Source: Bdellovibrionota bacterium (GTDB lineage Bacteria; Bdellovibrionota_C; UBA2361; OMII01). From it: a stretch of 64,000 bases of DNA. Location of the stretch: the NCBI GenBank assembly GCA_044356215.1, contig JBIKWQ010000003.1:953-64952 (forward strand). The letters are read 5' to 3'. The translations under genes were made by a program, and so were the position numbers. The notes beneath the pieces are model-generated. The model worked only from the letters and a program-made list of their open reading frames with translations. It was not told the DNA's origin and did no database searches. Positions 18,943 through 41,085 of the stretch are shown here, piece after piece (the first letter of the stretch is position 1; each line of letters opens with the position of its first letter).

Positions 18943-19124
18943 CGCATTCCAGAGTCATATTAGACTTAGCGCGGATAGGCCCGAAAAAAAAAGAACTAGA
19001 TATGCTGAAAGGAAATGATATAAAGCGCGCTAGGCGCTATGGTGACGCGAATGAGAATGAGCTGTGAAATTTGAGAAGACGAAACTCATGGATGAGATAC
19101 TACGCTTTCTCGCGAGATAATCAA
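18943..19124 (-). promoter_or_regulatory. putative his leader region: sigma70-like promoter, His-enriched mini-ORF and a U10 tract
   Basis: A -35 TTGATT (19124-19119), a 16-nt spacer and a -10 TAGTAT (19102-19097) lie 7 nt before an ATG. The mini-ORF reads MSFVFSNFTAHSHSRHHSA. A U10 run (A-run on the plus strand, 18984-18993) lies between the mini-ORF and hisG. Confidence 0.35.
19030..19089 (-). CDS. candidate his leader peptide (19 aa, 4 His in the last 9 codons)
   Basis: It reads ATG AGT TTC GTC TTC TCA AAT TTC ACA GCT CAT TCT CAT TCG CGT CAC CAT AGC GCC TAG on the minus strand. It is not a classic run of seven His codons, so this is tentative. Confidence 0.3.
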   Translation of the reverse strand: MSFVFSNFTAHSHSRHHSA

Positions 19125-24471: not shown

Positions 24472-25803
24472 ATGCTCCAACATATTGATATTACTAGAAC
24501 AGCATACCAAAAACTTGACACATGGCTAGAATCTAAATTTCGCAAGCCAATTCTTGTTCGAGGAGCCAGGCAGGTTGGAAAGTCTTTTACTGTAAGAACA
24601 TGGGGGCAAAAGAAAGCTGCCGCAGGTCAGTTTTTGGAGATTAATTTCGAAGAGCAACCCTCTTTAAAGTCTATATTTACCAAAGATCTAGTCATCCCAC
24701 GCATCCTGACTGAGCTGCAATTAGCTACAGGTATAAACCTTGAGAAGCCTGGAAGTATCCTTTTTATGGATGAGATCCAAGAGTGCCACGAAGCATTAAT
24801 GGCACTCAGATACTTTGCTGAGAAATATCCACAACTGCCGGTCCTCGCAGCAGGCTCGTTAGTAGATTTTGTTCTCAGTGAAATAGGATTTCCTGTGGGG
24901 CGCATAGATAACCTTGCGTTAACCCCGCTTTCTTTCTTTGAATTTCTCGCGGCCATTGGTAAACAGAAGCAGGTCGCGGAGCTTGCTACTGTATCTATTA
25001 CAACCGCCCTTCCTGAAGCATTACTACAAAGTCTCTTTTTAGATCTTCGATTGTATTTTCGCGTGGGGGGGATGCCTGAAGCTATAGCAGTCTATGCTAG
25101 TACTCACGACTTGAGTGAAGTTAGCAGGGTGCACTCTCGACTTATCAGAAACTACAGAGATGATTTTGCGAAGTATGCCAAGCAAAATGATTGGGAAGCG
25201 CTCAACATAGTATTTGATCGTCTCCCAGCCATGATTGGCCGTAACCGAATCAACTACTCTAAGTTTGATGCTCATATGCGCGGTGAAAAGATTCGTAGAG
25301 CGTTGACGCTACTTTCAACGGCAGGACTAGTTCACCGTGTTATTTCTTCTCAGGCGAACCAACCACCACTAAATGCTGAGAGTGACCCCCGTTTTTTTAA
25401 ACTGTTACTACTCGATATTGGATTGATGCAGGCTATGTTAGGTTTTGATTGGCGAAAAGTACGTCCTGATATGCCTGTTAATGAGATCCATGACGGTGCC
25501 TTTGCTGAGCAGTTTGTTGGCCAAGAGTTAATCTGTTCTGGAAGTAGTGACTCATTTTATCAACCTCATTACTGGTATCGCGGCGTAAAGGGTTCAGAGG
25601 CAGAGGTTGATTACGTCATTGTGCACAAAGGTTGTGTTACACCTGTTGAAGTTAAGTCTGGCTCGCGTGGTACACTGAAAAGTCTGGCGCTGTATCAAGA
25701 GAAATTCACTCCAGCGCAGTGCTTAGTACTTTCCATGCAGAACAGTGTTGAGCTTGAACGGATTAGATGGGTACCATTATTCTTAGCGAGTCGGCTGCTT
25801 TGA
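24472..25803 (+). CDS. AAA-superfamily ATPase (COG1373 / DUF4143-type)
   Basis: It has an N-terminal P-loop (ILVRGARQVGKSF), a Walker B (ILFMDEIQ), and a C-terminal region typical of this ATPase family. The length is 443 aa. Confidence 0.75.
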   Translation: MLQHIDITRTAYQKLDTWLESKFRKPILVRGARQVGKSFTVRTWGQKKAAAGQFLEINFEEQPSLKSIFTKDLVIPRILTELQLATGINLEKPGSILFMDEIQECHEALMALRYFAEKYPQLPVLAAGSLVDFVLSEIGFPVGRIDNLALTPLSFFEFLAAIGKQKQVAELATVSITTALPEALLQSLFLDLRLYFRVGGMPEAIAVYASTHDLSEVSRVHSRLIRNYRDDFAKYAKQNDWEALNIVFDRLPAMIGRNRINYSKFDAHMRGEKIRRALTLLSTAGLVHRVISSQANQPPLNAESDPRFFKLLLLDIGLMQAMLGFDWRKVRPDMPVNEIHDGAFAEQFVGQELICSGSSDSFYQPHYWYRGVKGSEAEVDYVIVHKGCVTPVEVKSGSRGTLKSLALYQEKFTPAQCLVLSMQNSVELERIRWVPLFLASRLL

Positions 25804-26694: not shown

Positions 26695-29424
26695 ATGATT
26701 AAAAAGATCCCAAACGCCGAAAAGCTCCGCCTGCAAGAGGACGCCGACCGGTCTAAGAACTGGAAGCGTTGGGGTCCCTACCTCTCTGAGCGCCAGTGGG
26801 GAACGGTACGCGAAGACTACTCACCCGACGGATCTGTTTGGAATTACTTTACTCACGACCAGTCACGGAGCCGTGCTTACCGCTGGGGTGAGGATGGGCT
26901 GCTTGGGATCACTGATAGGCAGTGCCGCATCTGTTTCTCATTCGCGTTTTGGAACGGGCGTGACACCATCCTAAAAGAGCGGCTCTTCGGTCTAGGAGGA
27001 ACGGAAGGAAATCACGGCGAGGATGTAAAGGAGTGCTACTACTATTTAGACTCATCTCCTACTCACTCATACATGCGCGCTCTTTATAAGTATCCACAAA
27101 GAGCTTTCCCTTACGATCAATTGGTGCAGCAAAATAGATCGCGTGGACGTGGGGTTCCTGAGTTTGAGCTTGCAGACACCGGCATATTTGATAACCATGA
27201 ATACTTCGATCTAGAGATTGAGTACGCCAAAGCTGGTCCAGAAGATCTGCTGATACGTTTAACGGCGCGCAATAGAGACAACAAAGCCGCGCCACTTAGA
27301 ATTATCCCAACTATCTGGTTTCGAAATACGTGGGGCTGGGGCCGCACAGGAGAGGGATACACTACAAAACCATCTCTCTCCGCTATCTCCCCGGACCAGT
27401 TCCTACTACTTCACCCAAACCTAGATCCTTATATCTTTAGAGCTGAAGCTAGCGAATTGGCGTCACATCCTACACCTTTATTCACTGAAAATGAATCGAA
27501 TCGATTCCGGCTGTTCGGCGGCGAGAATCAGACCCCGTATGTTAAAGATGCTTTTCACTCTTATATAATCGAGGGAAAAAGCGATTCTGTAAATTCAAAG
27601 CTTAATGGGACAAAAGCCGGGTTGCTCTACTCAATCGAGATACCAGCACGTGGCTCTGTAAGCTTAAATTTCTCACTAAGACTATCTAGCGAACACAGCA
27701 AGGTTTTATCCGCTGATGAATTCGATCAGATCATTAGCTCTAGGCGCGAAGAGTGCCAGGAATTCTACGATTCCGTTGTTCCGCCGAATGCATCGCCGGA
27801 GCAACGAAAGATCCTCACTCAGGCATACGCGGGACTTCTCTGGACTAAGCAGTTTTACTATTACTCTGTGCGTGAGTGGCTTGAGGGGGATCCAACTCAG
27901 CCAACACCCGCTCCATCACGTCGGTCACTCAAAAATTCGGAGTGGGAACACCTATATAATAGAGACATAATCTCTGTTCCTGACAAATGGGAATACCCTT
28001 GGTACGCGGCTTGGGACCTCGCTTTCCACATGATCCCTTTCTGTAAGATCGATCCCGACTTCGCCAAGAGTCAGCTCCTACTATTCCTTCGCGAATGGTA
28101 CATGCATCCAAATGGACAGATACCAGCTTATGAGTTTGGATTCTCTAACGTAAACCCTCCAGTACACGCCTGGGCCTGTTGGCGTGTTTACCAGATCACA
28201 TCAAAAGATGGCGCGCCCGATCGACTCTTTCTTAAGCGCGCGTTTACAAAGCTTTTAATGAACTTTACCTGGTGGGTAAATCGCAAAGACTCTAGCGGGA
28301 GAAATCTATTCGCTGGGGGCTTCTTGGGACTTGATAATATCGGAGTATTCGATAGAAGCGCTCCGCTTCCAAAGGGAGGTAGTCTACAACAAGCTGACGC
28401 AACCGCGTGGATGGCTTTTTATTGCACGACAATGTTGTCGATGGCGCTTGAGCTAGCGACCGAGGACGAGGAGTATGAGGATCTAGCTTCAAAATTCTTT
28501 GAGCATTTTATCGCCATCTCATCAGCGATAAATAATTTCGGGGGAACCGGTCTTTGGGATGAGCTAGATGGTTTTTATTACGACCAGTTAGAGCTTGAGA
28601 CAACAACTATTCCACTAAGAGCTCGTTCATTAGTTGGAGTAATTCCGATGCTCGTGGTTGAGATCCTCAAAGACTCAAAGATCCGGGCTCTACCAGGATT
28701 TAAGAAACGGCTCGATTGGTTTATCGCTAATAACCCTGAACTAGCCAAACAGCTAGATACGTCGAGTCGCGCTCGACAGAGCGAAGATGGGTCCGGAGAT
28801 AAACTCTTATCGATCCCATCGACAAAGCAGCTAAGGCGGCTGTTAGCTTATGTTTTAGATGAGAAGGAATTTCTCTCACCTTATGGGATGCGCTCATTAT
28901 CAAGGATTCACGCTGAGTATCCCTACCGTCTGACCCTAGAGAATAAAGACTACGGGATCGACTACTGTCCTGGTGACTCAAACACCGATTTCTTCGGTGG
29001 CAACTCCAACTGGCGTGGCCCAGTGTGGTTCCCGATGAACGCGCTTTTGATTGAAGCCTTGGATAAATATCACGAGTTTTACGGGGATGATTTTAAAGTC
29101 GAGTGTCCGACAGGATCTGGCGTCTTTATGAATCTTAGCGAGGTAGCGACCGAGCTGTCACGTAGATTAACAGATCTTTTTATGCCTAATTCCGAGGGCT
29201 TTAGACCTTGCCACGGCGATTCACCGCTATACGCAACCGATAGAAACTGGCGCGATTTAGTGCTGTTTTACGAGCACTTTCACGGAGACACCGGCCGCGG
29301 AATAGGAGCCAGCCATCAGACTGGTTGGACGGCTTTAGTGACTGAGTGTATCGAAAGGCTAGGCTTCCCCGCTAAAGATTACTGTCGCAAAGTATCAACG
29401 CGAAAAACAGGGGAAGATAAATAA
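26695..29424 (+). CDS. large glycoside hydrolase, GH63-like (processing alpha-glucosidase / MGH family)
   Basis: 909 aa. The N-terminal beta-domain is followed by an (alpha/alpha)6-barrel region with many conserved Trp, Asp and Glu residues (e.g. [21 protein letters not shown]). I assigned the family from memory of these motifs, not from a search. Confidence 0.55.
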
Positions 29425-30265
29425 CGCTGGCCTGAAGTAGTAGCCTTGCATCACCTATAGAGCGTGTCCGCCACGATCTTATTCCAACCCCTAGCATCGC
29501 CACTCCGAGCGCTAGCATGCCGGCCGCGTAAACTACACCCGCCATCTGAAACATATATGGCAGCAGCGATACAGGTATCAAAAGCACCGAGAAACCGAGG
29601 ATCTGTCTAAAGGTGCGCACGCCATCTGGATAAACTACCGGCAACATCTTGAATCCACCACGCGCGTAGTCGTCTCGGTACATCCATGCTATCGCGTAAA
29701 AGTGCGGATGTTGCCAAACAAAAAGGATCAGAAAAATTATCCACGCCCCTAATCCAACCTCACCCGTTGCGGCTGCCCATCCCCCCATCGGAGGTAAGGC
29801 CCCTGGAATAGCCCCGATTACTGTATTCCACCACGTAATCCGTTTAAGTGGAGTGTAGACCACTACGTATAAAAAAGTCGTTAAGAGAGAGAGGAAGCCC
29901 GTTAGCAGGTTTACCTGCCAGATTAAGATAGACACTCCAAGGAGCGCCGTGATCCAACCGAAATTTAGCGCCTCATTAGGAGACAAGACTCCACGTTGAA
30001 TCGGTCTACTCTTGGTGCGATTCATCTCAAGATCGCAATCGCGCTCTAGGTAGTTATTTAGAGCGGCGGCACCAGCGGAGCTGATCGCTGTTCCCAAAAG
30101 CGCCATAAAGAAGGTCCATAAAGGCTCAACTGTCTGGGCACCCAAGAAATACCCCGCGGCGGTCATCAGAACGACCATTACTAAGATCCTTGGCTTACTA
30201 AGGGCGATAAAACCCGATAGCTTTGACCCATTTGATTTCGCGGAAATTGTCATATTAGAGATCAA
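29372..30265 (-). CDS. cyoE: protoheme IX farnesyltransferase (haem O synthase), UbiA family
   Basis: It has multiple TM helices and the UbiA Asp-rich motif NNYLERDCDLEMNRTKSRP. It is 297 aa. The 3' end overlaps the convergent GH63 gene by 53 bp. Confidence 0.85.
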   Translation of the reverse strand: MISNMTISAKSNGSKLSGFIALSKPRILVMVVLMTAAGYFLGAQTVEPLWTFFMALLGTAISSAGAAALNNYLERDCDLEMNRTKSRPIQRGVLSPNEALNFGWITALLGVSILIWQVNLLTGFLSLLTTFLYVVVYTPLKRITWWNTVIGAIPGALPPMGGWAAATGEVGLGAWIIFLILFVWQHPHFYAIAWMYRDDYARGGFKMLPVVYPDGVRTFRQILGFSVLLIPVSLLPYMFQMAGVVYAAGMLALGVAMLGVGIRSWRTRSIGDARLLLQASVIYLPLFFALILCDSNL

Positions 30266-30379
30266 CCAGTGCGAATCGTAGGCACTGGCGAGAGGGAAGT
30301 CAACTTGTCACCTGTTGCGGTGAGCTTTCTTAGGGAAAAGCACCAAAACCTCGCTTACGCGATGTTTTGCCTCGCCTCC

Positions 30380-31372
30380 TTAGGAAAGCGCCCTTATTCG
30401 TTCAATAACCTGGGTCGCCTCATCAAAGCTCAAGGTCTGGGCCGCGTCTGATTTAGCCTGCTCCGGCTTCTCATGCACTTCGAGTAGGGTCGCGTCAGCT
30501 CCCGCTATGACCCCAGCTAGAGCCATTTGGGCGACGTATTTTCTCACCCCTACCCCATGCGATGGATCTACTACTACCGGCAGGTGAGACTTGTCTTTTA
30601 GATATGGCACAGCGTTTAGATCTAAAACATTTCTGTAAGCTTTCTCAAATGTTCTTATCCCCCTCTCGCACAATAAGATCTTTTCATTGCCGTTAGAGAA
30701 AATATACTCAGCCGACTGCAATAACTCCTCGAGAGTTCCAGACATGCCCCGTTTTAGGAGAACCGGCTTATCAACTCGGCCTAGAGCATCTAATAAAGTA
30801 AAGTTCTGAGAGTTGCGCGCCCCGACCTGGTACATATCCACATATGGATAGATCATATCGATCTGACTCGCGTCTAGAACCTCGGTTACGATCTTTATCC
30901 CATTTTCGCGGGCGATATCAGACCACATCTTGAGTCCCTCTAAACCCAAGCCCCTAAATGAATAGGGAGAACTACGGGGCTTGAACACTCCGCCACGCAT
31001 TATGCGGGCACCAACACTAACAAGATGAGACATGCTAGTTCTAACTTGAGCCTCTCCCTCAATTGAGCAAGGGCCAGCTATAACCTGATGCTCACCAGCG
31101 CCTATCAGCACTCCATCGCCTAGATCGATTACCGTAGGTTTTACTTTCCACTGCCGGGAGACCAACTGATAAGGGTCACGGACGTAGTGCACATCCTTAA
31201 CCCCCTCGAGCCCTCCGATGACGCGGATATCGAACTCTGCTCCCCCAACGTACACTAAATAAAACCCCTCTTGGGTATTCACTTTAGTAGCGGTTCCGCC
31301 GTAAGTGCTTAAAGCATCCCTAATATCTTGAACCTGCTTCTCTGTTGCCGATTTCTGTAAGGTAATAATCAT
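30380..31372 (-). CDS. 3-deoxy-7-phosphoheptulonate (DAHP) synthase, type I-beta with N-terminal regulatory domain
   Basis: It has KDSA/AroA(G)-family motifs (GPCSIE, KPRSSPYSFRG, VDPSHG) after a roughly 80-aa N-terminal ferredoxin-like domain. It starts 2 bp after the trpA stop. Confidence 0.85.
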   Translation of the reverse strand: MIITLQKSATEKQVQDIRDALSTYGGTATKVNTQEGFYLVYVGGAEFDIRVIGGLEGVKDVHYVRDPYQLVSRQWKVKPTVIDLGDGVLIGAGEHQVIAGPCSIEGEAQVRTSMSHLVSVGARIMRGGVFKPRSSPYSFRGLGLEGLKMWSDIARENGIKIVTEVLDASQIDMIYPYVDMYQVGARNSQNFTLLDALGRVDKPVLLKRGMSGTLEELLQSAEYIFSNGNEKILLCERGIRTFEKAYRNVLDLNAVPYLKDKSHLPVVVDPSHGVGVRKYVAQMALAGVIAGADATLLEVHEKPEQAKSDAAQTLSFDEATQVIERIRALS

Positions 31373-31374
31373 AG

Positions 31375-32178
31375 CTACCTAACACCCACAACAAACTCTC
31401 TTACTACAGCGCGCAGACCGGAGTCATCACTTCTAGCGCTATCAGTCGGCGAAGCCGCTACGGCACTTAGTGCTCTTGTAAAAGCACTTCCGATAATGGC
31501 ACCGTTAGTATGTCTAGTTACACTATTAAAAGTCTCTCTGTCTCGCACGCCAAATCCAACGATAAGTGGGCTTTTTAGCCCCATAGCGGCGACCCTTTGA
31601 AAGAAATCATCGCGCTCCTGTGTGACCGATACCGCGCCTCCTGTTACCGCGTCTGATGATAAGAGATAAAGGAAAGCCGGATCCTCCTGATCAAAAGCCT
31701 TTATTCGCTCAGGAGTTGTTCTAGTAGTCACAAGAAATACTGGTTTAACTCCGTGGCGTTTAAAAAGCGGTTTGTACTCACTCTGATACCGATCAAATGG
31801 CATATCTGGGATAATCGCTCCATCGATGCCACACCGCGCCGCGTCACTTAAAAAACTCTCAAACCCGTACTGTTCGACGGGATTAATGTATCCCATCAGT
31901 AAAAGGGGGATACTAGTAACAGCGCGAACCTCACTTAGCTGTTTAAAAAGCACCTTAAGAGACATGCCATTTTTTAAAGCTATCTGACTGCTCTCTTGAA
32001 TCGTTGGACCATCTGAAACCGGATCTGAGAAGGGGAAACCGATCTCGACAAGATCTACACCACTATCACTTAACGCTGATAGTATCGGTAACGTGTCATT
32101 TAAACGTGGATATCCTGCTGTAAAGAAAATTGAGAGCGCTTTCGCTTTAAGCGCGCTATTAAAACGATTCTCTGTCAT
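31375..32178 (-). CDS. trpA: tryptophan synthase alpha chain
   Basis: Motifs LVEIGFPFSDPVSDGPTIQ and GFGV match the TrpA fold. It is 267 aa. Confidence 0.9.
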   Translation of the reverse strand: MTENRFNSALKAKALSIFFTAGYPRLNDTLPILSALSDSGVDLVEIGFPFSDPVSDGPTIQESSQIALKNGMSLKVLFKQLSEVRAVTSIPLLLMGYINPVEQYGFESFLSDAARCGIDGAIIPDMPFDRYQSEYKPLFKRHGVKPVFLVTTRTTPERIKAFDQEDPAFLYLLSSDAVTGGAVSVTQERDDFFQRVAAMGLKSPLIVGFGVRDRETFNSVTRHTNGAIIGSAFTRALSAVAASPTDSARSDDSGLRAVVREFVVGVR

Positions 32179-32182
32179 AAAA

Positions 32183-33373
32183 CTACTCTCCTATGCTCTC
32201 ACCAAAGGCCTCAAGATAAGTCGCCATATCCTTATCACCGCGTCCAGATAGAATCACAACTAATCTATCTCCTTCTTTTAAGCCGAGGCGATCTAACGCC
32301 GCTATCGCATGAGCTGTCTCAAGAGCGGGGATAATCCCCTCACTTCTCGCTAGTAATTTAGCCCCCTCTAGCGCCTCTTTATCTGTAACGCTTAGGTACG
32401 TGACCCGGCCAGTTCTCCAGAGATAGGCGTGTTGCGGCCCGATACCTGGATAATCTAAGCCCGCTGAGATAGAGTGCGCCTCCTCAACTTGACCATCTTC
32501 GGTCTGCATAAATACCGTCTTACTTCCGTGCAGCACTCCTGGCTTACCAAGCGCCAAGGTCGCGGCGGATCTGCCGCTAGACACTCCGCAACCAGCCGCC
32601 TCTACACCGATTAACTTAATCTCTGGGTCCTCAACGCAGTGATAAAATCCCCCCATCGCGTTACTTCCACCACCGACACACGCGATCACATGTGTCGGTT
32701 TGAGACCACCATCTGCCATACATTGCGCAAGTAGCTCAGCGCTTATAACTGATTGAAAGCGCGCCACCATATCTGGAAAAGGATGTGGTCCCACAACAGA
32801 GCCTATTATGTAATGAGTGTCGTGAGGGTTAGCGATCCAATCACGCATCGCCTCGTTAGTAGCGTCTTTAAGGGTTCGACTGCCGCTATTTACTGCTCGC
32901 ACTTCAGCCCCTAGCAGACGCATCCGGGCCACATTTAAAGCCTGGCGCGCCATATCTACAGCACCCATATACACAACACACGGTAGCCCCATTAACGCGC
33001 AAACTGTAGCGGTCGCTACGCCGTGTTGACCCGCTCCTGTCTCGGCGATAATTCTGGACCTTCCTAGCCTCTTAGCTAGGAGGATCTGCCCTATAGTATT
33101 GTTGATCTTGTGGGCTCCCGTGTGCAGAAGATCCTCGCGTTTTAAAAGGATCTCGGCTCCGAATCGTTCGGATAGATTCTTGGCCTTAAACAGCGGGGTG
33201 GGTCGTCCGGCGAAATTTTTTAGTAGATCATCTAACTCTGCTTTAAAATCAGGCCTCTCAATTATTGAGAGGTAGCGCTGCTGTAGCTCACGCACATTCG
33301 GGTACAACATCTCCGGTACGTAAGCCCCACCAAAATCACCAAAATATCCATCGTCACTTACCTGTAGCTTCAT
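32183..33373 (-). CDS. trpB: tryptophan synthase beta chain
   Basis: It has the PLP-lysine region LLHTGAHKINN, the GGGSNAMG loop and the HGSKT motif. It is 396 aa. Confidence 0.95.
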   Translation of the reverse strand: MKLQVSDDGYFGDFGGAYVPEMLYPNVRELQQRYLSIIERPDFKAELDDLLKNFAGRPTPLFKAKNLSERFGAEILLKREDLLHTGAHKINNTIGQILLAKRLGRSRIIAETGAGQHGVATATVCALMGLPCVVYMGAVDMARQALNVARMRLLGAEVRAVNSGSRTLKDATNEAMRDWIANPHDTHYIIGSVVGPHPFPDMVARFQSVISAELLAQCMADGGLKPTHVIACVGGGSNAMGGFYHCVEDPEIKLIGVEAAGCGVSSGRSAATLALGKPGVLHGSKTVFMQTEDGQVEEAHSISAGLDYPGIGPQHAYLWRTGRVTYLSVTDKEALEGAKLLARSEGIIPALETAHAIAALDRLGLKEGDRLVVILSGRGDKDMATYLEAFGESIGE

Positions 33374-33999
33374 ACCTTCCTCATTACATCTTTAACTAAC
33401 TGTAGCGATTTCACGCCTGGCGAGACCTCAACCCTAGAATTTATATCGATTCCAAGAAGCATCGAGTATTTATTAGCCAGCAACTTAACTTTATCGATGC
33501 TCGATGGGCCGATTCCACCAGCCAAAAAAAATGGGGTATCGCCTCTATACTTTGCTAGTTGGTCCCAGTTAAAACTCTCGCCGCTTCCTGGCTTAAAGCC
33601 GTCAAATATATAGAGGTCAGCTCCTTTAGGTGGTGATACTAACTCAGATCCGCTCTCTCCTACCGAAATAGCCTTAAAGATCTGACAGCTTGGTATAGCG
33701 CGCTTACAATCTGCGATATACAAACTATCCTCACTGCCGTGTAGCTGAACCGCCCAGAGCCGATACCTGCGCGCCGCAGCCTCTATTTCCTCTATATCGG
33801 TATCGCGAAACACACCGACTGTCCTAATAGTGGAGGGGATCCCCTGTAAAAGCGCGTCTCGCTTCTCTGCGGCCACGTACCTTGGGCTCTCAGGAACAAA
33901 TACAAAACCCAGATAATCCGCACCCGCGGCGGAAACCTCTTTAGAGTTCTCCAGATCACGCATTCCGCAAACTTTTACTAAGAGTCGCCTCGTTCTCAT
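33370..33999 (-). CDS. trpF: phosphoribosylanthranilate isomerase
   Basis: It starts KVCGMRDLENS, carries LAGGIGP, and is 209 aa. It overlaps trpB and trpC in operon fashion. Confidence 0.85.
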   Translation of the reverse strand: MRTRRLLVKVCGMRDLENSKEVSAAGADYLGFVFVPESPRYVAAEKRDALLQGIPSTIRTVGVFRDTDIEEIEAAARRYRLWAVQLHGSEDSLYIADCKRAIPSCQIFKAISVGESGSELVSPPKGADLYIFDGFKPGSGESFNWDQLAKYRGDTPFFLAGGIGPSSIDKVKLLANKYSMLLGIDINSRVEVSPGVKSLQLVKDVMRKV

Positions 34000-34814
34000 C
34001 TGATTTGCGCGCCCGCCCCTAAAAGAGATTCAGCCCGCGCGATAAACCTCGCGCACGCCTCCTGCGGTTCACCTTCTCGCATAAAGGTTTCTCCGATTAA
34101 AAAGCCTTTAAATCCGGCTTTTTTAAGCGCTACCAGGTCTTCTGGTTTTGAGATCCCACTTTCCGCCACTGCTACAGTAGTTTTTGGTATCTCAGATATT
34201 AATTGATGACTTAGGTCTATCGAGACATTAAAAGTCTTTAAGTCACGATTGTTCACGCCGACAAGAGATATCTCTTCACTAAAATGAGATTCAAGCTCTA
34301 CTTTCGAGTGCACCTCTAAAAGAACCTCTAATCCTAGTGAGCGAGCTTGCCGCGCCAACACCCCGCACTCTTTAGGTGTCAATGCGGCGGCGATTAGCAG
34401 GACAACATCAGCCCCGATCGCTTTAGCTTCAACTATCTGATACTCATCGATGATAAAATCTTTCCGCAGGATCGGCGCATAGTTGCACTTACGAGCTATC
34501 TTCAGATCCGCTGAGCTACCCCCAAAATACTCCTTGTCTGTTAAGACTGAGAGCGCGGAGGCCCCGGCCTGCATATACCCGATCGATATATCCTCTACTG
34601 ATATATGCTCTCGAATAACCCCCTTTGAAGGGGAACGTCTCTTTATCTCCGCTATGACTCCAACCAGATCTTCGCGACTTAAGTAGTGGCTTAAAGATAC
34701 AACTGGACTACTAAAATATATCTCTCGCTCAAGTAGCTTAGTGGGGAAAAGCTCTCTGCGCTCAAGCACCTCTCGTTTCTTAGTCGCTATAATCTTCTCT
34801 AAAATATTACTCAT
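33996..34814 (-). CDS. trpC: indole-3-glycerol phosphate synthase
   Basis: It has EIKRRSPSKG, ILRKDFIIDEYQI and VLLIAAAL motifs. It is 272 aa. Confidence 0.9.
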   Translation of the reverse strand: MSNILEKIIATKKREVLERRELFPTKLLEREIYFSSPVVSLSHYLSREDLVGVIAEIKRRSPSKGVIREHISVEDISIGYMQAGASALSVLTDKEYFGGSSADLKIARKCNYAPILRKDFIIDEYQIVEAKAIGADVVLLIAAALTPKECGVLARQARSLGLEVLLEVHSKVELESHFSEEISLVGVNNRDLKTFNVSIDLSHQLISEIPKTTVAVAESGISKPEDLVALKKAGFKGFLIGETFMREGEPQEACARFIARAESLLGAGAQIR

Positions 34815-34820
34815 AACTCT

Positions 34821-35816
34821 TTAAAGCTCCTGACATCTCCGCAACACCTTCAAGGCTCTTCCGGAATTTATTGACTCCTCGGCTATAGCTAAACACTCAC
34901 TGAGATTGCCTCTAGCTCCTTGATAGAACCAGATGGCGGATCCCGCATTAGCGACGACACACGATTTTTGGGCCCGATCAGAGGAATTTCTTAAGATACC
35001 CTCAATCAATTTGGCGCTTTCTATCGCTGAGGTTGGAGCGGCAATCTGAGCCGGAGATAATTTTGGACTACTCAAGTCACCTGGTCTAAGCTCAAAAGAT
35101 CCCGAAGAGGAAACTACTCTTGCTGTATCAGTAAGAGACAGCTCATCGTATCCATCTAAAGAATGAACTACTGCGAACTTTTTGTTTCTGCGATTAAGTA
35201 GGTAGCCATATAGCCTTTGAAGCTCAAGATTGTATACGCCAGTATATTGAAAATCGATCGTGGCCGGATTGATTAGTGGCCCAAGGGCATTAAATACCGT
35301 GCGAAATCCCAACTCTTTGCGAACTGGCGCCAAGCTCCTAAAAGCCTGATTAAATAGCAGAGCGTGGATAAAGCACACCCCAGCTTCTGCTAGGGATCGT
35401 TTAAGATGTTCCTGTTCTCCAGAAAGCTTAATCCCTAAAGCCTCCAATACATTTGAGGAGCCGCATGATGATGAGACTGCTATATTACCGTGCTTTGCTA
35501 CTTTATAGCCCGCGCCCGCGACAACAAAGGCCGCTGTCGTAGAGATGTTAAACGAGCTTTTTCCGTCACCACCCGTTCCGCACATGTCGATTAGCTCAGC
35601 GCAATCTAAATCAATAGGTGTAGCCAATTCAGCCGCTGCTGCTGAAAATCCATCAAGCAGATCGACGTCTAACCCCCGGGTAGCTAATGCTGTTAGTAGC
35701 GCCGCTAGATATGTTTCTGTGTAGCGACCGCTGGCGATGGCTAACATAAGCTCGCGGCTCTCAGCTACGGAGAGTCGTCTACCTGCGACTATCTCTTTAA
35801 GCGATACTAAACTCAT
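34821..35816 (-). CDS. trpD: anthranilate phosphoribosyltransferase
   Basis: It has CGTGGDG and KHGN.AVSS motifs. It is 331 aa. Confidence 0.9.
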   Translation of the reverse strand: MSLVSLKEIVAGRRLSVAESRELMLAIASGRYTETYLAALLTALATRGLDVDLLDGFSAAAAELATPIDLDCAELIDMCGTGGDGKSSFNISTTAAFVVAGAGYKVAKHGNIAVSSSCGSSNVLEALGIKLSGEQEHLKRSLAEAGVCFIHALLFNQAFRSLAPVRKELGFRTVFNALGPLINPATIDFQYTGVYNLELQRLYGYLLNRRNKKFAVVHSLDGYDELSLTDTARVVSSSGSFELRPGDLSSPKLSPAQIAAPTSAIESAKLIEGILRNSSDRAQKSCVVANAGSAIWFYQGARGNLSECLAIAEESINSGRALKVLRRCQEL

Positions 35817-36391
35817 AATGCCGCGATCCGCTCTATTATCTGAGCCCCTAGCGGCGTCAGAATAGATTCAGGGTGAAACTGAACACCATACACTCTATGG
35901 ACTCTATGCCTAAGCGCCATGATCAGACCCGAATCATCTTCTGCTGTAATCTGAAGTTCATTAGTGGGAAAATCCTCTTTATCGACTACCCAGGAGTGAT
36001 AGCGGCCAACGTCGAATCTCTCGGGAAGCTCACCTAAAATAGGATCATCTTTAAAGAAACGTTTAATCGATGTTGCTTTACCGTGAACAGGTGAGGCGAT
36101 ATTTCTCAGTTTGGCCCCATAAATCTCTCCGATGCACTGGTGACCCAAACAAACCCCAAATATCGTCTTCGTCGCACCAAAGCTACGAACTATATCAGGC
36201 ATCAATCCCGCTTCCATCGGTATCCCCGGCCCCGGCGAGAGAACGATCTTTTTAAAAGGCTCCACATCGGCGAGCGCAAGTTGATCATTTCTCTTAACGT
36301 GAACATTGACGTTACCCACACCCCGCAGCATGTGCACCAGGTTATAAGTAAATGAGTCGTAGTTATCTATTAGCAGGATCTCTTGCATCAC
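35813..36391 (-). CDS. trpG: anthranilate synthase component II (glutamine amidotransferase)
   Basis: It has the class I amidotransferase triad (GVCLGHQ, then the His at HPES). It is 192 aa. Confidence 0.9.
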   Translation of the reverse strand: MMQEILLIDNYDSFTYNLVHMLRGVGNVNVHVKRNDQLALADVEPFKKIVLSPGPGIPMEAGLMPDIVRSFGATKTIFGVCLGHQCIGEIYGAKLRNIASPVHGKATSIKRFFKDDPILGELPERFDVGRYHSWVVDKEDFPTNELQITAEDDSGLIMALRHRVHRVYGVQFHPESILTPLGAQIIERIAAL

Positions 36392-37827
36392 AGCACCTCT
36401 CCCCTTGTCGCGCTCTCCGCCTTATCTATAGCTAATCTAAGCGCCCTAAGCTTTATATGAGCCTCAGCCAATTCAGATTCCGGTTTTGAATCAAAGACGA
36501 TCCCCATTCCCGCTTGATACGCTAGTGTTTGACCGACACTTAAGAAAGATCGGATCATAATCCCAAGTACCACATCACCATTAAAGCCGATAAATCCAAC
36601 ACAGCCGCCGTAGTGACCACGCCCGTGGGGCTCAATTCGATCAAGTATAGTCATAGCGCTGTGCTTTGGAGCGCCTGAAAGAGTCCCTATCGGGAAGGTG
36701 TCACATATGACTCTTAGTACCGTCTCTACAGATCGGTCCGGAAGATTACCTAAAACTTTTGATACTAGATGAATTAGGTGCGAATAGAAGTGCGTCTCGC
36801 GATACGCTGCCACTCTTACCTCATTTGCGTAACGACTGAGATCGTTCCGCGCGAGATCTACAAGCATCGAGTGCTCGGCGTTCTCTTTCGGATCCTCTAA
36901 AAGGCGCTTAGCCTCTCTTAGATCTAGCTCATCATCACCACTTTTCTGGTATGTGCCAGCTATTGGGAATATTCCGGCGACCCCTTCGGTGATTGAGATC
37001 TGCGCCTCTGGCGACGAACCGATTAAGCGGTAAGAGCCGTAATCACAGTAAAAGAGATAAGGAGATGGGTTTATTGATCGAAGCGCCCGATAAACCTGAA
37101 AGTCATCTCCCTCGTATCTCCGTAGATAACGCCTGGATGGCACAATCTGAAACACATCCCCGCGGGCTATGTGGCGTTTGCAGGAATTGATGAGACCAAG
37201 AAAGTCCTGGTCACTCTGTACCGACACCTCATCACCCACGACTTTAAATGGATAAACCCGCGCGTCCCCGGTGAAAGCGGCTCTAATAAACTCCTCACGA
37301 GCTCGGCGTGTATCAGAATTATCTTGAGTTGTGTTCTCGAGTACATACGCCTCACCCTTGAATGGATTACACGCAATCACGTAACGGAAGAGTGAGAAGT
37401 GTGCGTCTGACACCTCGAATCCATCTGGCGCCTTAGCTGTAAATTTTATCTGCTCAAGATATGGGATCGCTGACCAGGAGATATGTCCAAAAACTCCGGG
37501 AGTAACTCCCTTAGGGATATCTCTATTAGAGGTATCTACCTCAATACCACGCATAAATCCGCCAAGAGCTTTTGCCAGGCCAGTTGCTGGCTCAATCTCA
37601 AACTTCACCTCTTCATTGTCCTCATAGCGAATCGAGCAGCTTCCCTTATCGATTACACATTCAGCGATCGGATCACAGCAGATAAACGAGCGGCAATCTC
37701 CAGGACCGTGATAATCCGAACTCTCGAACAAAAAGACTCGTGAGTAGCGGTCCCTTAGTCGGAGATAAATAGCGGCAGGCGTGGTTAAATCGAGGGGAAC
37801 TGTCGTGAAAGATGGGGAGATACGCAT
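36388..37827 (-). CDS. trpE: anthranilate synthase component I
   Basis: It has the chorismate-binding C-terminal domain (SPE..I.I.R, GAPK, GGCVGF). It is 479 aa with ATG at 37827. Confidence 0.9.
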   Translation of the reverse strand: MRISPSFTTVPLDLTTPAAIYLRLRDRYSRVFLFESSDYHGPGDCRSFICCDPIAECVIDKGSCSIRYEDNEEVKFEIEPATGLAKALGGFMRGIEVDTSNRDIPKGVTPGVFGHISWSAIPYLEQIKFTAKAPDGFEVSDAHFSLFRYVIACNPFKGEAYVLENTTQDNSDTRRAREEFIRAAFTGDARVYPFKVVGDEVSVQSDQDFLGLINSCKRHIARGDVFQIVPSRRYLRRYEGDDFQVYRALRSINPSPYLFYCDYGSYRLIGSSPEAQISITEGVAGIFPIAGTYQKSGDDELDLREAKRLLEDPKENAEHSMLVDLARNDLSRYANEVRVAAYRETHFYSHLIHLVSKVLGNLPDRSVETVLRVICDTFPIGTLSGAPKHSAMTILDRIEPHGRGHYGGCVGFIGFNGDVVLGIMIRSFLSVGQTLAYQAGMGIVFDSKPESELAEAHIKLRALRLAIDKAESATRGEVL

Positions 37828-38016
37828 AAAATATAAGCCAGGTTAGGACCAGTAGAATAAAAAGAGTAGCTAAAAAATATGAGGCGCCGGGAATATGTAG
37901 GGGCTAGGCCCACCAGGAGTGGGATGAGATATTGCCCCATTGGGACTTATTTTTATGAGCTTTTGCTGGCTGAACACTCATTTTTATAAGATACCTGGAG
38001 TTACAACGCTGGTCAA
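37828..38016 (-). promoter_or_regulatory. trp promoter and attenuator region
   Basis: A -35 TTGACC (38016-38011), a 17-nt spacer and a -10 TATCTT (37993-37988) lie 6 nt before the leader ATG, which implies a leaderless transcript. The trp-codon hairpin is CCCAC-uccug-GUGGG. A U6 tract (37876-37871) is followed by a second U5 tract before trpE. Confidence 0.5.
37904..37981 (-). CDS. trpL: trp operon leader peptide (25 aa, tandem Trp codons at the C-terminus)
   Basis: The minus strand reads ATG AGT GTT CAG CCA GCA AAA GCT CAT AAA AAT AAG TCC CAA TGG GGC AAT ATC TCA TCC CAC TCC TGG TGG GCC TAG, which is MSVQPAKAHKNKSQWGNISSHSWWA. It ends 77 nt upstream of trpE. A U6 run follows. Confidence 0.6.
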   Translation of the reverse strand: MSVQPAKAHKNKSQWGNISSHSWWA

Positions 38017-38022
38017 GAAATA

Positions 38023-39459
38023 TTAGGGGATGTCTTCTAGGAGCTTTAACAGGGAGCGAAATTTTATTAGGGGGCTATTGTGGCTCTCCAGATATGAAGC
38101 GGCTTTATCATCACTAAAAGGAGCATTTAAATCATCCCATATTGGCCAAATCAGCGATTTATACATGTGAACAGCCGCCGCTCTCATCGCTAAATGCTTT
38201 AGCTCCTCTCTTTGCTGAGGACCTTTCTCATATCCATTCATGAAACTATCAAATAGGCTTAAGTCTATCTCCCCATTCCTTGGCCATCTGCTCCAAATAT
38301 ATAGTATCCATCCTAGCATTACAGGCTCTGGAACGATCGCAACCCTTTCTAAATCCAGCATCGCTACTCTGCCGGAACCATTATTTCTATCGTACTGCCA
38401 GTTTCCTAAATGCGGATCTGAATGAGTCAAACAACACCTGTGATTCAGATTAAATGTATCTTCATACCAACTACATAATCTCGTGAAATTATGAGTATTA
38501 AAATTTAAGAGCTTGAGCGTGGCTTTTAGCTGCGGAGATCCTGACAGCTCCCGATTCAGCAACTCCTCTTCGTGGCTAAAGAGTCTTGCGACTGTCGCGC
38601 CTATTTTTCCTCCGCTGACGGTATTGCCTGTAAAGCCATCACTCGACACATATCCGAGACCTTCCACTTTTATATCAGCAATGCGCCGCATGAGTTCACC
38701 GGCTTTGCGCACAGCGCTGTGTAAAAGGCTCGCGTCTTCATCGCTCTTAGTGTTTTCAGCTCTTAGCAAGATCGCTCTAATCGTCTCTCCAGGTGCAAAA
38801 GTAAAAAAAGTATGCAAAAAAGGGGCGCTAGTAATCAGCTTACAATCGATCTGATCATGCACCCCATGCTGCTTAAAAAACTTTGATATCCTGTATCTCT
38901 GCTTGAGGCGCTCAAAGCTATCAGACTCAGATTTCTTGGCAACTAGCGCCACTATCTGCGACCTATCATCCCGTAATGCCCAGAAACTCATACCTTCGCC
39001 AATGATCTTGAAATCTAACGGTGACTCGTCCTGACTCCTAATAACGCCCCCTGGCAGCACCCTTTTACTAGTTACTTTAAGCAACTCATTTAGGGCCTTC
39101 TCGCGGAAATTATTGAAGCCGCCTCTTAGCTCGGTATTGTCCTTTAATGAGCCCCTCTTCAGCTCCGAGTCCATCGCCGCCAGGCTCAGCGGGAGTTCAT
39201 AAAGCGCCTGCTCGCATCCTTCTCCCGCGTCTGATATCAGATCTATTTTATCCAATACCCTGACTAAAAGCCGCTGCAACGGAGAATCTTGAGCATGTGC
39301 ACCAACAAACTCTTCCAAAGCCTTTCGAGTTAAAGCTACATCTGCAGCTAAACCTCTAAAGCTATTCTTTAAAAATGACTGTGGAGACAACCTACGCTGC
39401 TCATTTTCTAAATGGGGTATGAAGTCCGGTCTTACACCCGAACGCTGATCGAACGCCAT
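38023..39459 (-). CDS. protein-kinase-like fold phosphotransferase (APH/ChoK-type), function unknown
   Basis: 478 aa. It has a catalytic-loop-like THSDPHLGNW (HxDxxxxN) followed by LDLE (DxE metal site), and a helical N-terminal region. Confidence 0.5.
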   Translation of the reverse strand: MAFDQRSGVRPDFIPHLENEQRRLSPQSFLKNSFRGLAADVALTRKALEEFVGAHAQDSPLQRLLVRVLDKIDLISDAGEGCEQALYELPLSLAAMDSELKRGSLKDNTELRGGFNNFREKALNELLKVTSKRVLPGGVIRSQDESPLDFKIIGEGMSFWALRDDRSQIVALVAKKSESDSFERLKQRYRISKFFKQHGVHDQIDCKLITSAPFLHTFFTFAPGETIRAILLRAENTKSDEDASLLHSAVRKAGELMRRIADIKVEGLGYVSSDGFTGNTVSGGKIGATVARLFSHEEELLNRELSGSPQLKATLKLLNFNTHNFTRLCSWYEDTFNLNHRCCLTHSDPHLGNWQYDRNNGSGRVAMLDLERVAIVPEPVMLGWILYIWSRWPRNGEIDLSLFDSFMNGYEKGPQQREELKHLAMRAAAVHMYKSLIWPIWDDLNAPFSDDKAASYLESHNSPLIKFRSLLKLLEDIP

Positions 39460-39603
39460 AATCCACAGAAGCTCAAAAAATACACGCTCTCTGCTTCATT
39501 CTCGCGCTCTTTTTAATACTAATCAAAATTTCTGTGTCGGGTTTAGGGCGTCCTAGACCTTATGAGGGTGGGATAGTTTGTTTTGGATCTAAACACTACG
39601 CAG

Positions 39604-39975
39604 GTGATTTTTGAAAAAATCACTCGCAATAGCAGGGCGAGCGCAATCTTGGCGCCTGCAGATCAGTAGTAGCCCATTTGCGTCGTAAAAGACAAAAAAC
39701 ACTCGAGCCGCAGCGCAGGACTATCTAGTCGTTGAAAGGCGTAAGACTATTGGTGTGTGGGTCGATTTTTAAACGGACAGGAACGCAAATTACTGGCAAA
39801 AGAGCTACGGCTTGAGCGCTATGCGTGCTTCTTGAGATAGAATTAAGTGCATATTTCTGCTCGACGCCTTCACACGCTCGGCACGTAGGAGTTTGTTGTC
39901 TTCTACGGCTCAACTTGGCTCCGCCAAGATTGCGCTCGCCCAGCTATCCTAATTCATTTTTTTCAAAAATGAATT
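39604..39975. repeat. approximately 370-bp element bounded by roughly 50-bp inverted repeats (MITE-like); each arm is an A/T palindrome plus GGGCGAGCGCAATCTTGGCG
   Basis: An exact 20-mer inverted repeat lies at 39636-39655 and 39921-39940. The adjacent ATTTTTGAAAAAAT-containing palindromes are GTGATTTTTGAAAAAATCAC at 39604-39623 and CCTAATTCATTTTTTTCAAAAATGAATTAGG at 39945-39975. The arms are about 75% identical over about 50 bp. Confidence 0.45.
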
Positions 39976-39984
39976 AGGCTGGGT

Positions 39985-41085
39985 TTATACCCCAACCTTC
40001 CCCACATACCCAGTCATCTCAAGATAACCAAATATCCCCTCATCCTCCGAGGTTACCGGCCCCTCCCAGTATTTAACTCCGTGCGCTGATTGATCATCCA
40101 AACCACCGCCAACTTCGCATTGATTAACTCTGGCCTTCAAAACTGCATCGATCCCCTCTGACGGAACCACTACACGCCACTGTATCGGATAATCAGCTCC
40201 GCTCGCCGCGCTCTTCCAATTAACTAAAGGTGTAATCTCAAAATCACTCGCGCTAAGCGCGCGCGTCCCTGTAAGGCTCCTTATGCCACCGGAAGCGAAA
40301 TCCTGCACTCCGTTTTTATTCCTTAGCCTAAACAACATTAAGCTTCGGCCGTCTTTTAAATTCAGACCAAACCAATCCCACCCGACCTGATCAGAGCTAA
40401 GTGAGTTAGTCATAAACTCGTGATCCATCCAGACTAAGCCAGATAAATCCCTCAACTTCCCCGCTCCCTCTCGTAAAGTGGCGCTTACTGCGATTCGCGG
40501 CATCGAGTAATACATTGATGCGCATGACTGACAAGCAGCCTTTTTACTTAATCCAAGTTCACCCTGCAACCACGGCGGACTCAGATCCCCACTTAAGACC
40601 CGCAGCTCCAGATCGAAACCTCTCTCCCCGTCTCGCACTGCAAAACGCGCGAAAAAACGATTCCCCACTGAGTCTATCGTCCAGTCACCTGAGTGAGCCG
40701 CGAGAGAATCATTAGCCACAGATGATATGCCCAGCGCACCTCCACCGACTCTCTTTGCATGATATGTTTTCTGTTTTGAGATATCAGTTAAAGCGGCGTG
40801 CGCCATGTACTCACTTATTATCTTACCTGACTTGCGATCTGAGCGCCTAAAGAAAGTAAGTTGGAATCCATACAAAGGCTTATCCTCGAACAGCTTGGCT
40901 TCCTTACTGAAGAGATGTCCAGTGTAGTACCACCACTCAGTCTGATATTGGTCATGGGCTCCATGATCTCGTGGGAAACTCCATTCATACCCCTTCTCAG
41001 CATGTTTTAACTCCTGCGCTATGACTAACGGGAGAGCTAAGATAATCGCGAAAAAAGCCGATAATACCGAATAAATCTTACTCAT
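39985..41085 (-). CDS. secreted lipocalin-like / CrtC (hydroxyneurosporene synthase)-like protein, AttH family
   Basis: It has a signal peptide and the motifs FPRDHGAHDQYQTEWWYYTGHLF, which are typical of the CrtC/AttH family. It is 366 aa. The start overlaps the end of the FtsX permease gene by 8 nt. Confidence 0.7.
   Translation of the reverse strand: MSKIYSVLSAFFAIILALPLVIAQELKHAEKGYEWSFPRDHGAHDQYQTEWWYYTGHLFSKEAKLFEDKPLYGFQLTFFRRSDRKSGKIISEYMAHAALTDISKQKTYHAKRVGGGALGISSVANDSLAAHSGDWTIDSVGNRFFARFAVRDGERGFDLELRVLSGDLSPPWLQGELGLSKKAACQSCASMYYSMPRIAVSATLREGAGKLRDLSGLVWMDHEFMTNSLSSDQVGWDWFGLNLKDGRSLMLFRLRNKNGVQDFASGGIRSLTGTRALSASDFEITPLVNWKSAASGADYPIQWRVVVPSEGIDAVLKARVNQCEVGGGLDDQSAHGVKYWEGPVTSEDEGIFGYLEMTGYVGKVGV

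Follow-up and report, generated by a model that had tools for sequence, protein, structure and literature searches.

How does a tryptophan operon sense its end product when the leader in front of it keeps the sensing codons of an attenuator and no conserved terminator follows them? This question is raised by a stretch of 64,000 nucleotides from a Bdellovibrionota bacterium (contig JBIKWQ010000003.1; the whole stretch is referred to below as the window), in which a trpEGDCFBA operon on the minus strand is headed by a short open reading frame (ORF) with tandem Trp codons at its end. A preliminary description had by implication taken this leader for a classical attenuator. Its comparison with related loci, and with a sister element at the his operon of the same window, presents it instead as a new variant of ribosome-mediated attenuation, whose mechanism we infer from sequence: the sensor would be retained, while the output would pass through a compact module formed by a hairpin around the stop codon, an AUAY box and a C-rich spacer. 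For the complete reading—a ribosome-mediated attenuator with a leaderless leader ORF and Rho as the output—a probability of roughly 45% seems appropriate.

The leader ORF and its promoter

The trpL-like leader ORF (37904–37981, minus strand, ATG at 37981) comprises 25 codons followed by UAG and encodes MSVQPAKAHKNKSQWGNISSHSWWA, in agreement with the 25-residue leader originally described before trpE. Its proposed sensor is the tandem pair of UGG codons W23 and W24 (37910–37915, minus strand). These had been placed immediately before the stop; the tandem pair is indeed present, although a single Ala codon separates it from the UAG. In the same way, the location of the leader before trpE holds, whereas the gap between its stop and the trpE ATG (37827) measures 76 nt, not 77 nt.

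The comparative set was assembled from TrpE relatives and a metagenome scan, and the removal of near-duplicates left 16 trp loci of the clade and nine outgroup loci with a recognisable leader. The closest TrpE relatives (71–72% identity) are found in metagenome-assembled genomes (MAGs) labelled Bdellovibrionota, with Cytophagales further off (45–47%), and the metagenome scan added trp loci from 98% down to ~32% TrpE identity. Conservation in related genomes, which had been proposed as a check on the leader, is evident: the leader ORF, the promoter spacing and the W-A-stop ending recur before trpE in all 16 non-redundant loci, from 92% to 39% TrpE identity, while the rest of the peptide varies. 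The endings are WWA-stop, WA-stop or WWWA-stop in 16/16 loci, in each of which a single codon separates the last Trp from the stop. The last regulatory codon stands exactly one codon away from the stop in 26/26 leaders, compared with 3–13 codons in the nine classical outgroup leaders. Outside this ending, even close relatives diverge. W15 of the window leader is Ser in a locus with a 98%-identical TrpE (L009), and a locus with a 92%-identical TrpE (L010) encodes an unrelated peptide, MRSLSINIQPTTFKAVAASLSWWA, that ends in SWWA-stop. A conserved arrest peptide of the tnaC or speFL type is therefore not present in these leaders, since conservation is confined to W-A-stop.

As in classical attenuators, codons of the regulated amino acid stand before the operon—WWA-stop at trpE and HSHSRHHSA-stop at hisG—and are conserved in relatives. 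Because these codons match the amino acid of the operon, following the established logic of attenuation, we infer that the leader mini-gene senses the supply of Trp through the stalling of ribosomes at hungry codons.

Upstream of the leader, the minus strand of the window reads ttcTTGACCagcgttgtaactccaggTATCTTataaaaATG. The promoter reported in the preliminary description is found there as stated, with a −35 hexamer TTGACC (38011–38016, minus strand), a spacer of 17 nt, a −10 hexamer TATCTT (37988–37993, minus strand) and 6 nt before the leader ATG. The −35 hexamer appears as TTGAC(C/T/A) at the same distance from the ATG in 16/16 non-redundant trp loci, and all the trp loci of the clade follow the arrangement TTGAC(C/T/A), 17–18 nt, a TAnnnT hexamer, 6–8 nt and ATG. 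The distance from the −35 hexamer to the ATG is kept at 35–38 nt in the 16 trp loci and in seven his loci, although the intervening bases are not conserved. Promoter-like matches as such are not enriched in this region (10 seen, 13.6 expected from shuffles); the trp leader promoter is raised above chance by the recurrence of its spacing, of the ORF and of the W-A-stop ending before trpE in every relative examined. The gene upstream of the promoter differs between loci (an APH-family gene, for instance, is absent in L010), and the promoter therefore travels with the leader.

This geometry is that of transcription starting at the A of the ATG, and hence the transcription of the trp leader is probably leaderless, with its start at or next to the AUG. 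Leaderless translation, as already suggested for this leader, is made probable by the fixed distance of 35–38 nt and by the use of ATG as the start codon in 26/26 leaders, when about a quarter of the ordinary genes of the window use GTG or TTG. Leaderless mRNAs and mRNAs without a Shine-Dalgarno (SD) sequence may be common in this genome, where an SD-like motif is found in 14 of the 46 window genes. Elsewhere in the window, a TATAAT ends 8 nt before the ATG of a GNAT acetyltransferase gene (19198, plus strand), and a TATAGC-like hexamer lies 5 nt before the ATG of a gene at 24472 (plus strand).

The leaderless start is not the novelty of the element, since Deinococcus deserti (PMC4007540) and mycobacteria (10.1101/834739) offer known or predicted examples of such leader peptides, which are also suggested by some of the outgroup loci. 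Four of these (L030, L033, L044 and L050; high-GC, TrpE 33–37% identical) hold classical trpL leaders, with WW to WWWW and a strongly conserved terminator, AACCCATCTCCG...GGGATGGGTTTTT, behind a TTGAC(G/T)-17/18-NATACT promoter that ends 6–9 nt before the leader ATG, so that they look leaderless too. In D. deserti the transcription start coincides with the leader AUG before amino-acid biosynthesis genes, including trpEGD, as is probable here; those leaders, however, have been read as classical terminator/antiterminator attenuators, and the stop-codon hairpin module is not described there (PMC4007540).

The stop-codon hairpin, the AUAY box and the spacer

At the end of the trp leader, the RNA is predicted to form a hairpin GGGC-CUA-GCCC (37901–37911, minus strand; −7.4 kcal/mol), in which the last GG of W24 and the GC of Ala25 make up the 5' arm, and the UAG runs from the loop into the 3' arm, of which it takes up the first base. 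The sequence UGGGC-N-UAR-(G)CCC is invariant among the trp loci and forms a GC hairpin of 4–5 bp, the loop of which contains the stop codon. The stem exists in two registers: either a 3-nt NUA loop with the G of UAG paired, or a 4-nt loop (NUAA, NUAG or NUGA) followed by GCCC. Across all the elements, the predicted stability of the stop-codon hairpin ranges from −6.7 to −10.8 kcal/mol, and the stems differ in a compensatory way, with GGGC/GCCC at trp, (A/C)GCGC/GCGC(U/G) at his and UCCUC/GAGGA in Pontibacter, and loops of 3, 4 or 5 nt. These pair types were tabulated by script; a MAFFT alignment misaligned the trp, his and Pontibacter cores. When both strands of the window (128 kb) were scanned, the hairpin was found at the trp and his leaders only, and the same result was obtained for the clade loci within 831 kb of sequence; the module was seen at no other operon in these 831 kb, which contained no further amino-acid operons of the clade.

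Two other readings of this region were rejected. An operator acting at the DNA level (palindrome TGGGCGTAAGCCCA) does not fit, because its distance from the promoter varies with the length of the ORF, it is always in frame with the stop, and the his sequence differs. An outer helix around the stop hairpin, pairing YCUGG with a downstream CCRG, can be drawn by inspection in the window, L001, L003 and L020, and not in L010, L011, L013 and L029.

Four nucleotides after the hairpin lies the AUAY box (AUAU; 37893–37896, minus strand), in the context CUACAUAUUCC. An AUAY occurs no more than 22 nt after the stop in 21 of the 26 leaders, versus 10% of background windows. The remaining distance to trpE belongs to a 76-nt pyrimidine-rich, G-poor and unstructured spacer (37828–37903, minus strand; C 0.29, G 0.11, Y 0.72), the proposed zone of Rho loading, similar to a Rho utilization (rut) site. 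The spacer measures 68–117 nt among the loci and never less than 68 nt; longer ones are seen only with inserted repeats (L013 and L028), and in both loci the extra structured DNA is inserted only past the first ~60 nt. The insertion of L013 (~1050–1135) consists of three tandem GC-rich palindromic units of ~29 nt (GTTCAGCGGACGCGCTCGCGCGCCGAGGA), similar to repetitive extragenic palindromic (REP) elements, and lies in the trp spacer after its conserved initial ~60 nt.

The bias in base composition is found on both sides of the hairpin, with C at 0.37–0.40 and G at 0.08–0.15 in the 30 nt that follow the stop (+1 to +30), and C at 0.34–0.38 and G at 0.12–0.15 between −40 and −10. As the last 30–40 nt of the leader ORF are thus also C-rich and G-poor, the hairpin occupies the middle of a zone of ~100 nt with more C than G. 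In 12 of the 16 trp loci, the excess of C over G in the first 50 nt of the spacer falls within about the top 3% of windows, and in 17 of 20 loci the 60 nt that follow the hairpin rank with the least structured 5% of 60-nt windows.

A locus with a TrpE only 39% identical (L028, 1256–1336; contig FKKE01001005.1) carries the full module, with the ending …NWWWA-stop, a UGGGC-UUAG-GCCCG hairpin and CACAUAC, so that the design extends beyond the TrpE clade.

The window contains one further convincing leader, identified by a scan for the promoter–ATG geometry and, independently, by a scan for short ORFs that end in a GC hairpin enclosing the stop codon. This sister element (19030–19124, minus strand) precedes the his operon, and holds TTGATT (19124–19119), 16 nt, TAGTAT (19102–19097), 7 nt and the ATG (19089) of an ORF encoding MSFVFSNFTAHSHSRHHSA. 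Its hairpin, AGCGC-CUAGC-GCGCU (19038–19024, minus strand), has the stop in the loop and reaches just past the ORF, and its AUAU box (19021–19018, minus strand) lies within UUAUAUC. A pyrimidine-rich spacer follows, and then hisG (18912–18055), hisC, hisB, hisH, hisA, hisF and hisIE. This spacer includes a U9 run (~18993–18985) with no preceding hairpin. The gap between hisG and hisC is only 60 nt (window 18055–16961), and hisD is absent from the operon, though it stands after hisG in L059 and L061–L066.

The same his arrangement is present in six relatives found through HisG (L059, L061, L062 and L064–L066), which hold His-rich leaders ending in HH(H)-S/R-A-stop, the stop-loop hairpin, AUAY and a spacer of 68–83 nt. 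The outer pair of the his stem covaries: it is A-U where the codon is AGC (Ser), and C-G where the codon is CGC (Arg). The third pair is inverted between the trp and his stems (G-C to C-G). The his promoters of L062, L065 and L066 show TTGCTT at the right distance and, where the −10 hexamer is expected, a conserved TGTGAGAACAC with a poor match to sigma-70, which may represent an extended −10 or the use of another sigma factor. Outside this lineage, three cultured Pontibacter species (L067–L069; Bacteroidota; HisG 63–65% identical) hold leaders ending in ...HHSS-stop and a hairpin with the UAA in a GUAA loop on a stem of 6–7 bp, (A)UUCCUC/GAGGAA(U), followed by CAUA...ACCAUAUUGCCCCC. Since the same module comes after Trp codons at trp and after His codons at his, it behaves as a generic output device, with the codons as the specific sensor.

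Possible routes from a stalled ribosome to the operon

In attenuation of the E. coli type, the leader would fold into alternative hairpins, and an intrinsic terminator would use one of the two U-tracts of the spacer (37877–37872 or 37863–37859). This interpretation, the preliminary one, now appears very improbable. The U-tracts exist in the window, RNAfold draws a long-range AUGGGGC/GCCUCAU pairing that ends just before the U6 run, and in a few loci weak pairing is possible between the UGG codons and CCRG motifs further downstream. Against these observations, the fold of the window leader (RNAfold, 37820–37985), where mutually exclusive hairpins had been expected, is no better than that of shuffled sequences (z = +0.38); the 5' arm of the long-range pairing is mutated, with no compensation, in the 98%-identical L009; and in each locus the spacer belongs to the RNA with the least structure. 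The his leader gives z = −0.6 versus shuffles, and neither the folds of the two leaders nor their unstructured spacers support mutually exclusive antiterminator and terminator structures over the regulatory codons. A compact GC hairpin followed by a U-run was found in none of 24 clade loci, whereas the same scan script detected a textbook terminator, with contiguous stems of 9–15 bp and −11.5 to −27.7 kcal/mol, in 9/9 outgroup loci; the clade loci returned only loose, long-range and weak-tailed structures, many of them outside the spacer. The preliminary description had itself made the classical attenuator depend on a conserved terminator-like structure before trpE, and none is conserved there. 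The U-tracts that it reported are present, although not as a conserved feature: they are missing in L004 (whose spacer has no U-run), L016, L017 and L019, and G is almost absent from the L010 spacer, with ~6 in 76 nt. Given that no terminator is conserved in the clade, the U-tracts of the window are a local trait of a genome richer in AT. It would be still harder to dismiss the small ORF as fortuitous, or as an independent small protein with no regulatory role, an idea that is hardly credible. A peptide whose sequence is not conserved, in a region where promoter-like hexamers are not enriched, could be taken that way; yet the ORF, the fixed distance from the −35 hexamer to the start, the Trp-Ala-stop ending and the position before trpE recur in 16/16 loci, and the ORF before hisG ends in His codons, such a match of codons to operon being the signature of attenuation leaders. 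A strongly conserved leader with the terminator absent argues for an element that is real and works differently.

The element shares with trpL and hisL of E. coli and Salmonella a short leader ORF before the operon, rich in codons for the end product, at which stalling presumably reports the charged tRNA. It differs from them in the absence of the 1:2, 2:3 and 3:4 hairpins and of the intrinsic terminator, in regulatory codons that stand at the very C-terminal end, with a single codon left before the stop, in its probably leaderless translation, and in a spacer that is unstructured rather than highly structured. Unlike them, it also has no Rfam match to a Trp or His leader—nothing at E ≤ 1 in 29000–40000 and nothing at the gathering score in the whole window or 20 loci—in a test of little power, which also missed the classical outgroup leaders.

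A stalled ribosome might also act after transcription, on the initiation of trpE translation or on mRNA decay, which we consider unlikely. In one version of this idea, the regulatory codons would pair with the downstream initiation region, following the type of the mycobacterial leaderless Cys small ORFs (sORFs); leaderless sORFs of M. smegmatis with regulatory codons at the 3' end do act translationally (10.1101/834739). The leader resembles these polycysteine sORFs in a probably leaderless sORF as the first cistron, regulatory codons clustered at its 3' end, no terminator hairpin and poly-pyrimidine tracts in the spacer, and its own geometry, with a −10 hexamer that ends 6–8 nt before the ATG, would fit a leaderless start. 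The mycobacterial Cys codons, however, pair with the SD/start region in a very stable duplex, while here the leader is unusually unstructured and such pairing was not found: RNAduplex between the last 21 nt of the ORF and the trpE or hisG initiation region gave rank fractions of 0.05–0.97 in 20 loci, leaving direct sequestration unsupported. A complementarity UGGUGGG/CCCAUCA with trpE codons 4–6, visible in some loci, showed no enrichment over the locus background in RNAduplex and was rejected. In the other version, the hairpin and the single-stranded AUAY would be an entry site for an endonuclease of the RNase E type, exposed once the ribosome leaves. RNase E sites are usually found where a stem-loop stands beside an A/U-rich single-stranded box, a context matched by the hairpin and the AUAY box; both would thus acquire a role, and their place within the footprint of the stalled ribosome would be explained. 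This version leaves the C-rich spacer of a constant 68 nt or more without explanation, and AUAY differs from the published RNase E consensus. More doubtful still is that the hairpin and AUAY form the site of a lineage-specific factor, or a hairpin-stabilised pause or termination signal for RNA polymerase, which a ribosome on the codons would switch off with no involvement of Rho. The module is far more conserved than the rest of the leader, is common to trp and his, and is kept across Bdellovibrionota-like MAGs and Pontibacter; no candidate factor is known, though, on inspection the consensus elemental pause (G-10, Y-1, G+1) is not matched at the AUAY box, and a 4–5 bp hairpin with no U-tract is not known to terminate bacterial RNA polymerase.

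With an intrinsic terminator, alternative folding and start-region pairing excluded, what remains is a factor that acts on single-stranded C-rich RNA by the stop codon. Rho is favoured for this role because C-rich RNA is placed in this way in the Rho-dependent tnaC, speFL and cruR attenuators, in which the stalled ribosome shields a rut site next to the stop codon of the upstream ORF (uORF) (PMC12360218). In the proposed mechanism, a sigma-70-type promoter would place the transcription start on the leader AUG or beside it, so that a 70S ribosome would load on the 5' end. The ORF closes with one to three Trp codons, one Ala codon and the stop; when charged tRNA-Trp runs short, the ribosome would stall there, 1–2 codons before the stop. 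The output module, independent of the amino acid sensed, would consist of the 4–5 bp hairpin, the AUAY box and an unstructured stretch of RNA, rich in C and poor in G, of 68 nt or more. Under ample Trp, the ribosome would reach the stop and leave, the hairpin would re-form, and ~100 nt of RNA with more C than G—the 3' part of the ORF and the spacer—would become free, so that Rho could load and halt RNA polymerase ahead of trpE or in its first part. Under Trp shortage, a ribosome on the UGG codons would cover the centre of this zone, including the hairpin and the initial spacer nucleotides, Rho could not load and the operon would be transcribed. The same module behind His codons would control the his operon. 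The idea that ribosomes reach trpE from the leader, by termination-reinitiation or by 70S scanning, was rejected: its logic is reversed, as trpE would rise with Trp, and no spacer is shorter than 68 nt.

The RNA directly beside the stop of the leader is C-rich, G-poor and unstructured, as in attenuators that combine a uORF with Rho. The minimum spacer of 68 nt, which is about the length of RNA bound by a Rho hexamer, and the tolerance of insertions only beyond ~60 nt also fit the involvement of Rho. For terminator-less mycobacterial cys leaders, Rho has been proposed without proof (PMC1262725). As in tnaC-tnaAB, speFL-speF and cruR (PMC12360218), the uORF stop lies directly beside a C-rich untranslated stretch of ~70 nt or more, and the site of Rho entry would be shielded by a ribosome halted where the uORF ends. 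These systems differ from the leaders described here in that they sense a free ligand through a conserved arrest peptide, with stalling at the stop, whereas here the peptide is variable and stalling would occur at hungry sense codons; in that they control catabolic or transport genes, as opposed to biosynthetic operons; and in that they hold neither a stop-codon hairpin nor an AUAY box, Rho dependence being in the present case a proposal from sequence.

Several points weigh against this reading. A stalled ribosome covers ~12–15 nt downstream, which leaves at least 55 nt of the spacer free, so that the exclusion of Rho is not obvious. The model requires neither the hairpin nor the AUAY box, the two most conserved features of the element. 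C-rich unstructured RNA is necessary, and not specific, for rut sites, and it equally suits the SD-independent initiation expected where so few genes carry an SD-like motif. Furthermore, the stem never varies within the trp set, so that its covariation emerges only from the comparison of trp, his and Pontibacter, and the loci are phylogenetically related, by which the counts overstate their independence. A rho gene is not found in the 64-kb window.

The operon and the significance of the element

All seven trp genes are encoded on one strand, overlapping or less than 10 nt apart, and form a whole-pathway trpEGDCFBA operon (all minus strand): trpE, anthranilate synthase component I (36388–37827; NCBIfam TIGR00564, E = 6e-102); trpG, anthranilate synthase component II (35813–36391; NCBIfam), which overlaps trpE by 4 nt; trpD, anthranilate phosphoribosyltransferase (34821–35816; NCBIfam TIGR01245, over the curated cut-off); trpC, indole-3-glycerol phosphate synthase (33996–34814; NCBIfam); trpF, phosphoribosylanthranilate isomerase (33370–33999; NCBIfam); trpB, tryptophan synthase beta subunit (32183–33373; NCBIfam TIGR00263, 578 bits); and trpA, tryptophan synthase alpha subunit (31375–32178; NCBIfam). 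In L003 (4799–5226), trpE and trpG are separated by a gap of 427 nt where the window has the 4-nt overlap.

The last gene of the operon encodes a type I-beta DAHP synthase (3-deoxy-7-phosphoheptulonate synthase) with an N-terminal regulatory domain (30380–31372, minus strand). Its match to NCBIfam NF006421 (398 bits, cut-off 335) covers 1–329 of 338 positions, and its assignment to type I-beta follows from the full-length alignment (1–329; E = 7.5e-83) with the DAH7PS of Thermotoga maritima, 1RZM, which includes the N-terminal regulatory domain (residues 1–65). Only 2 nt separate the trpA stop from its ATG, the remaining junctions of the operon being 4-nt overlaps or gaps of 4–6 nt, so that both the identity and the position originally reported for this gene stand. 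Its co-regulation with tryptophan had likewise been suggested, and co-transcription with the trp genes is supported by the occurrence of a DAHP synthase gene directly after trpA in L003, L004 and L005 as well, although not in the Cytophagales locus L006. The operon plausibly ends after this gene, because a terminator-like hairpin with a GUAA tetraloop (30333–30369, minus strand; −17.9 kcal/mol), followed by GUGCUUUU, comes after the DAHP synthase stop, and the next gene, for heme o synthase, has a promoter-like site of its own (30303–30275). At the other end, a gene for a 478-residue protein with a weak Pfam match to APH (phosphotransferase) lies between a CrtC-like gene and the trp promoter (38023–39459, minus strand), with its stop 6 nt from the −35 hexamer; in L010, whose TrpE is 92% identical, the CrtC-like gene directly abuts the trp promoter, and thus the APH-like gene looks like a recent insertion.

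The linkage of trpA to a DAHP synthase gene is already known, since the adjacency of trpA and aroG/aroH at 3–20 bp was described from the Sargasso Sea metagenome (PMC2395257). The window resembles those trp contigs in having this gene 2–20 bp after trpA, whereby the first common step of aromatic synthesis would be co-expressed with the Trp branch, and differs from them in its Thermotoga-type I-beta enzyme with an N-terminal allosteric domain and in an arrangement that is fixed in the clade (L003, L004 and L005). The aro supraoperon of B. subtilis also co-expresses a DAHP synthase with the Trp branch, with another gene set and under regulation by TRAP. In this clade, the linkage would place the entry of the aromatic pathway under the control of Trp-tRNA.

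The combination of features at the trp and his leaders—regulatory codons one codon before a stop in a hairpin loop, AUAY, a polypyrimidine spacer and no terminator, in two operons and two phyla—was not found described in searches of the full-text literature or in Rfam. Tentatively, and with chances that we put a little short of even, it represents an undescribed class of attenuator, serving at least trp and his in an uncultured Bdellovibrionota-like lineage and his in Pontibacter, where it would be near-leaderless. In this class, the regulatory codons would stand one codon (two in Pontibacter) before the hairpin-loop stop, and the hairpin–AUAY–polypyrimidine module would replace the terminator switch, being read out by the occupancy of the ribosome through Rho or another factor, and not by the refolding of the RNA.

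Textbook attenuation consists of competing hairpins and an intrinsic terminator; here the sensor is kept and the output appears to have been replaced by a compact module in two operons and two phyla. The motif offers a simple rule by which leaders of this kind could be annotated in little-studied phyla, in which Rfam and the attenuator finders that look for terminators detect nothing, and the Pontibacter species provide a cultured system in which the module can be tested. If the output is Rho, the element would be a starvation-sensing, biosynthetic counterpart of tnaC, in which a single stalled ribosome gates Rho without an RNA switch; if it is not, the hairpin–AUAY module would point to an unknown effector.

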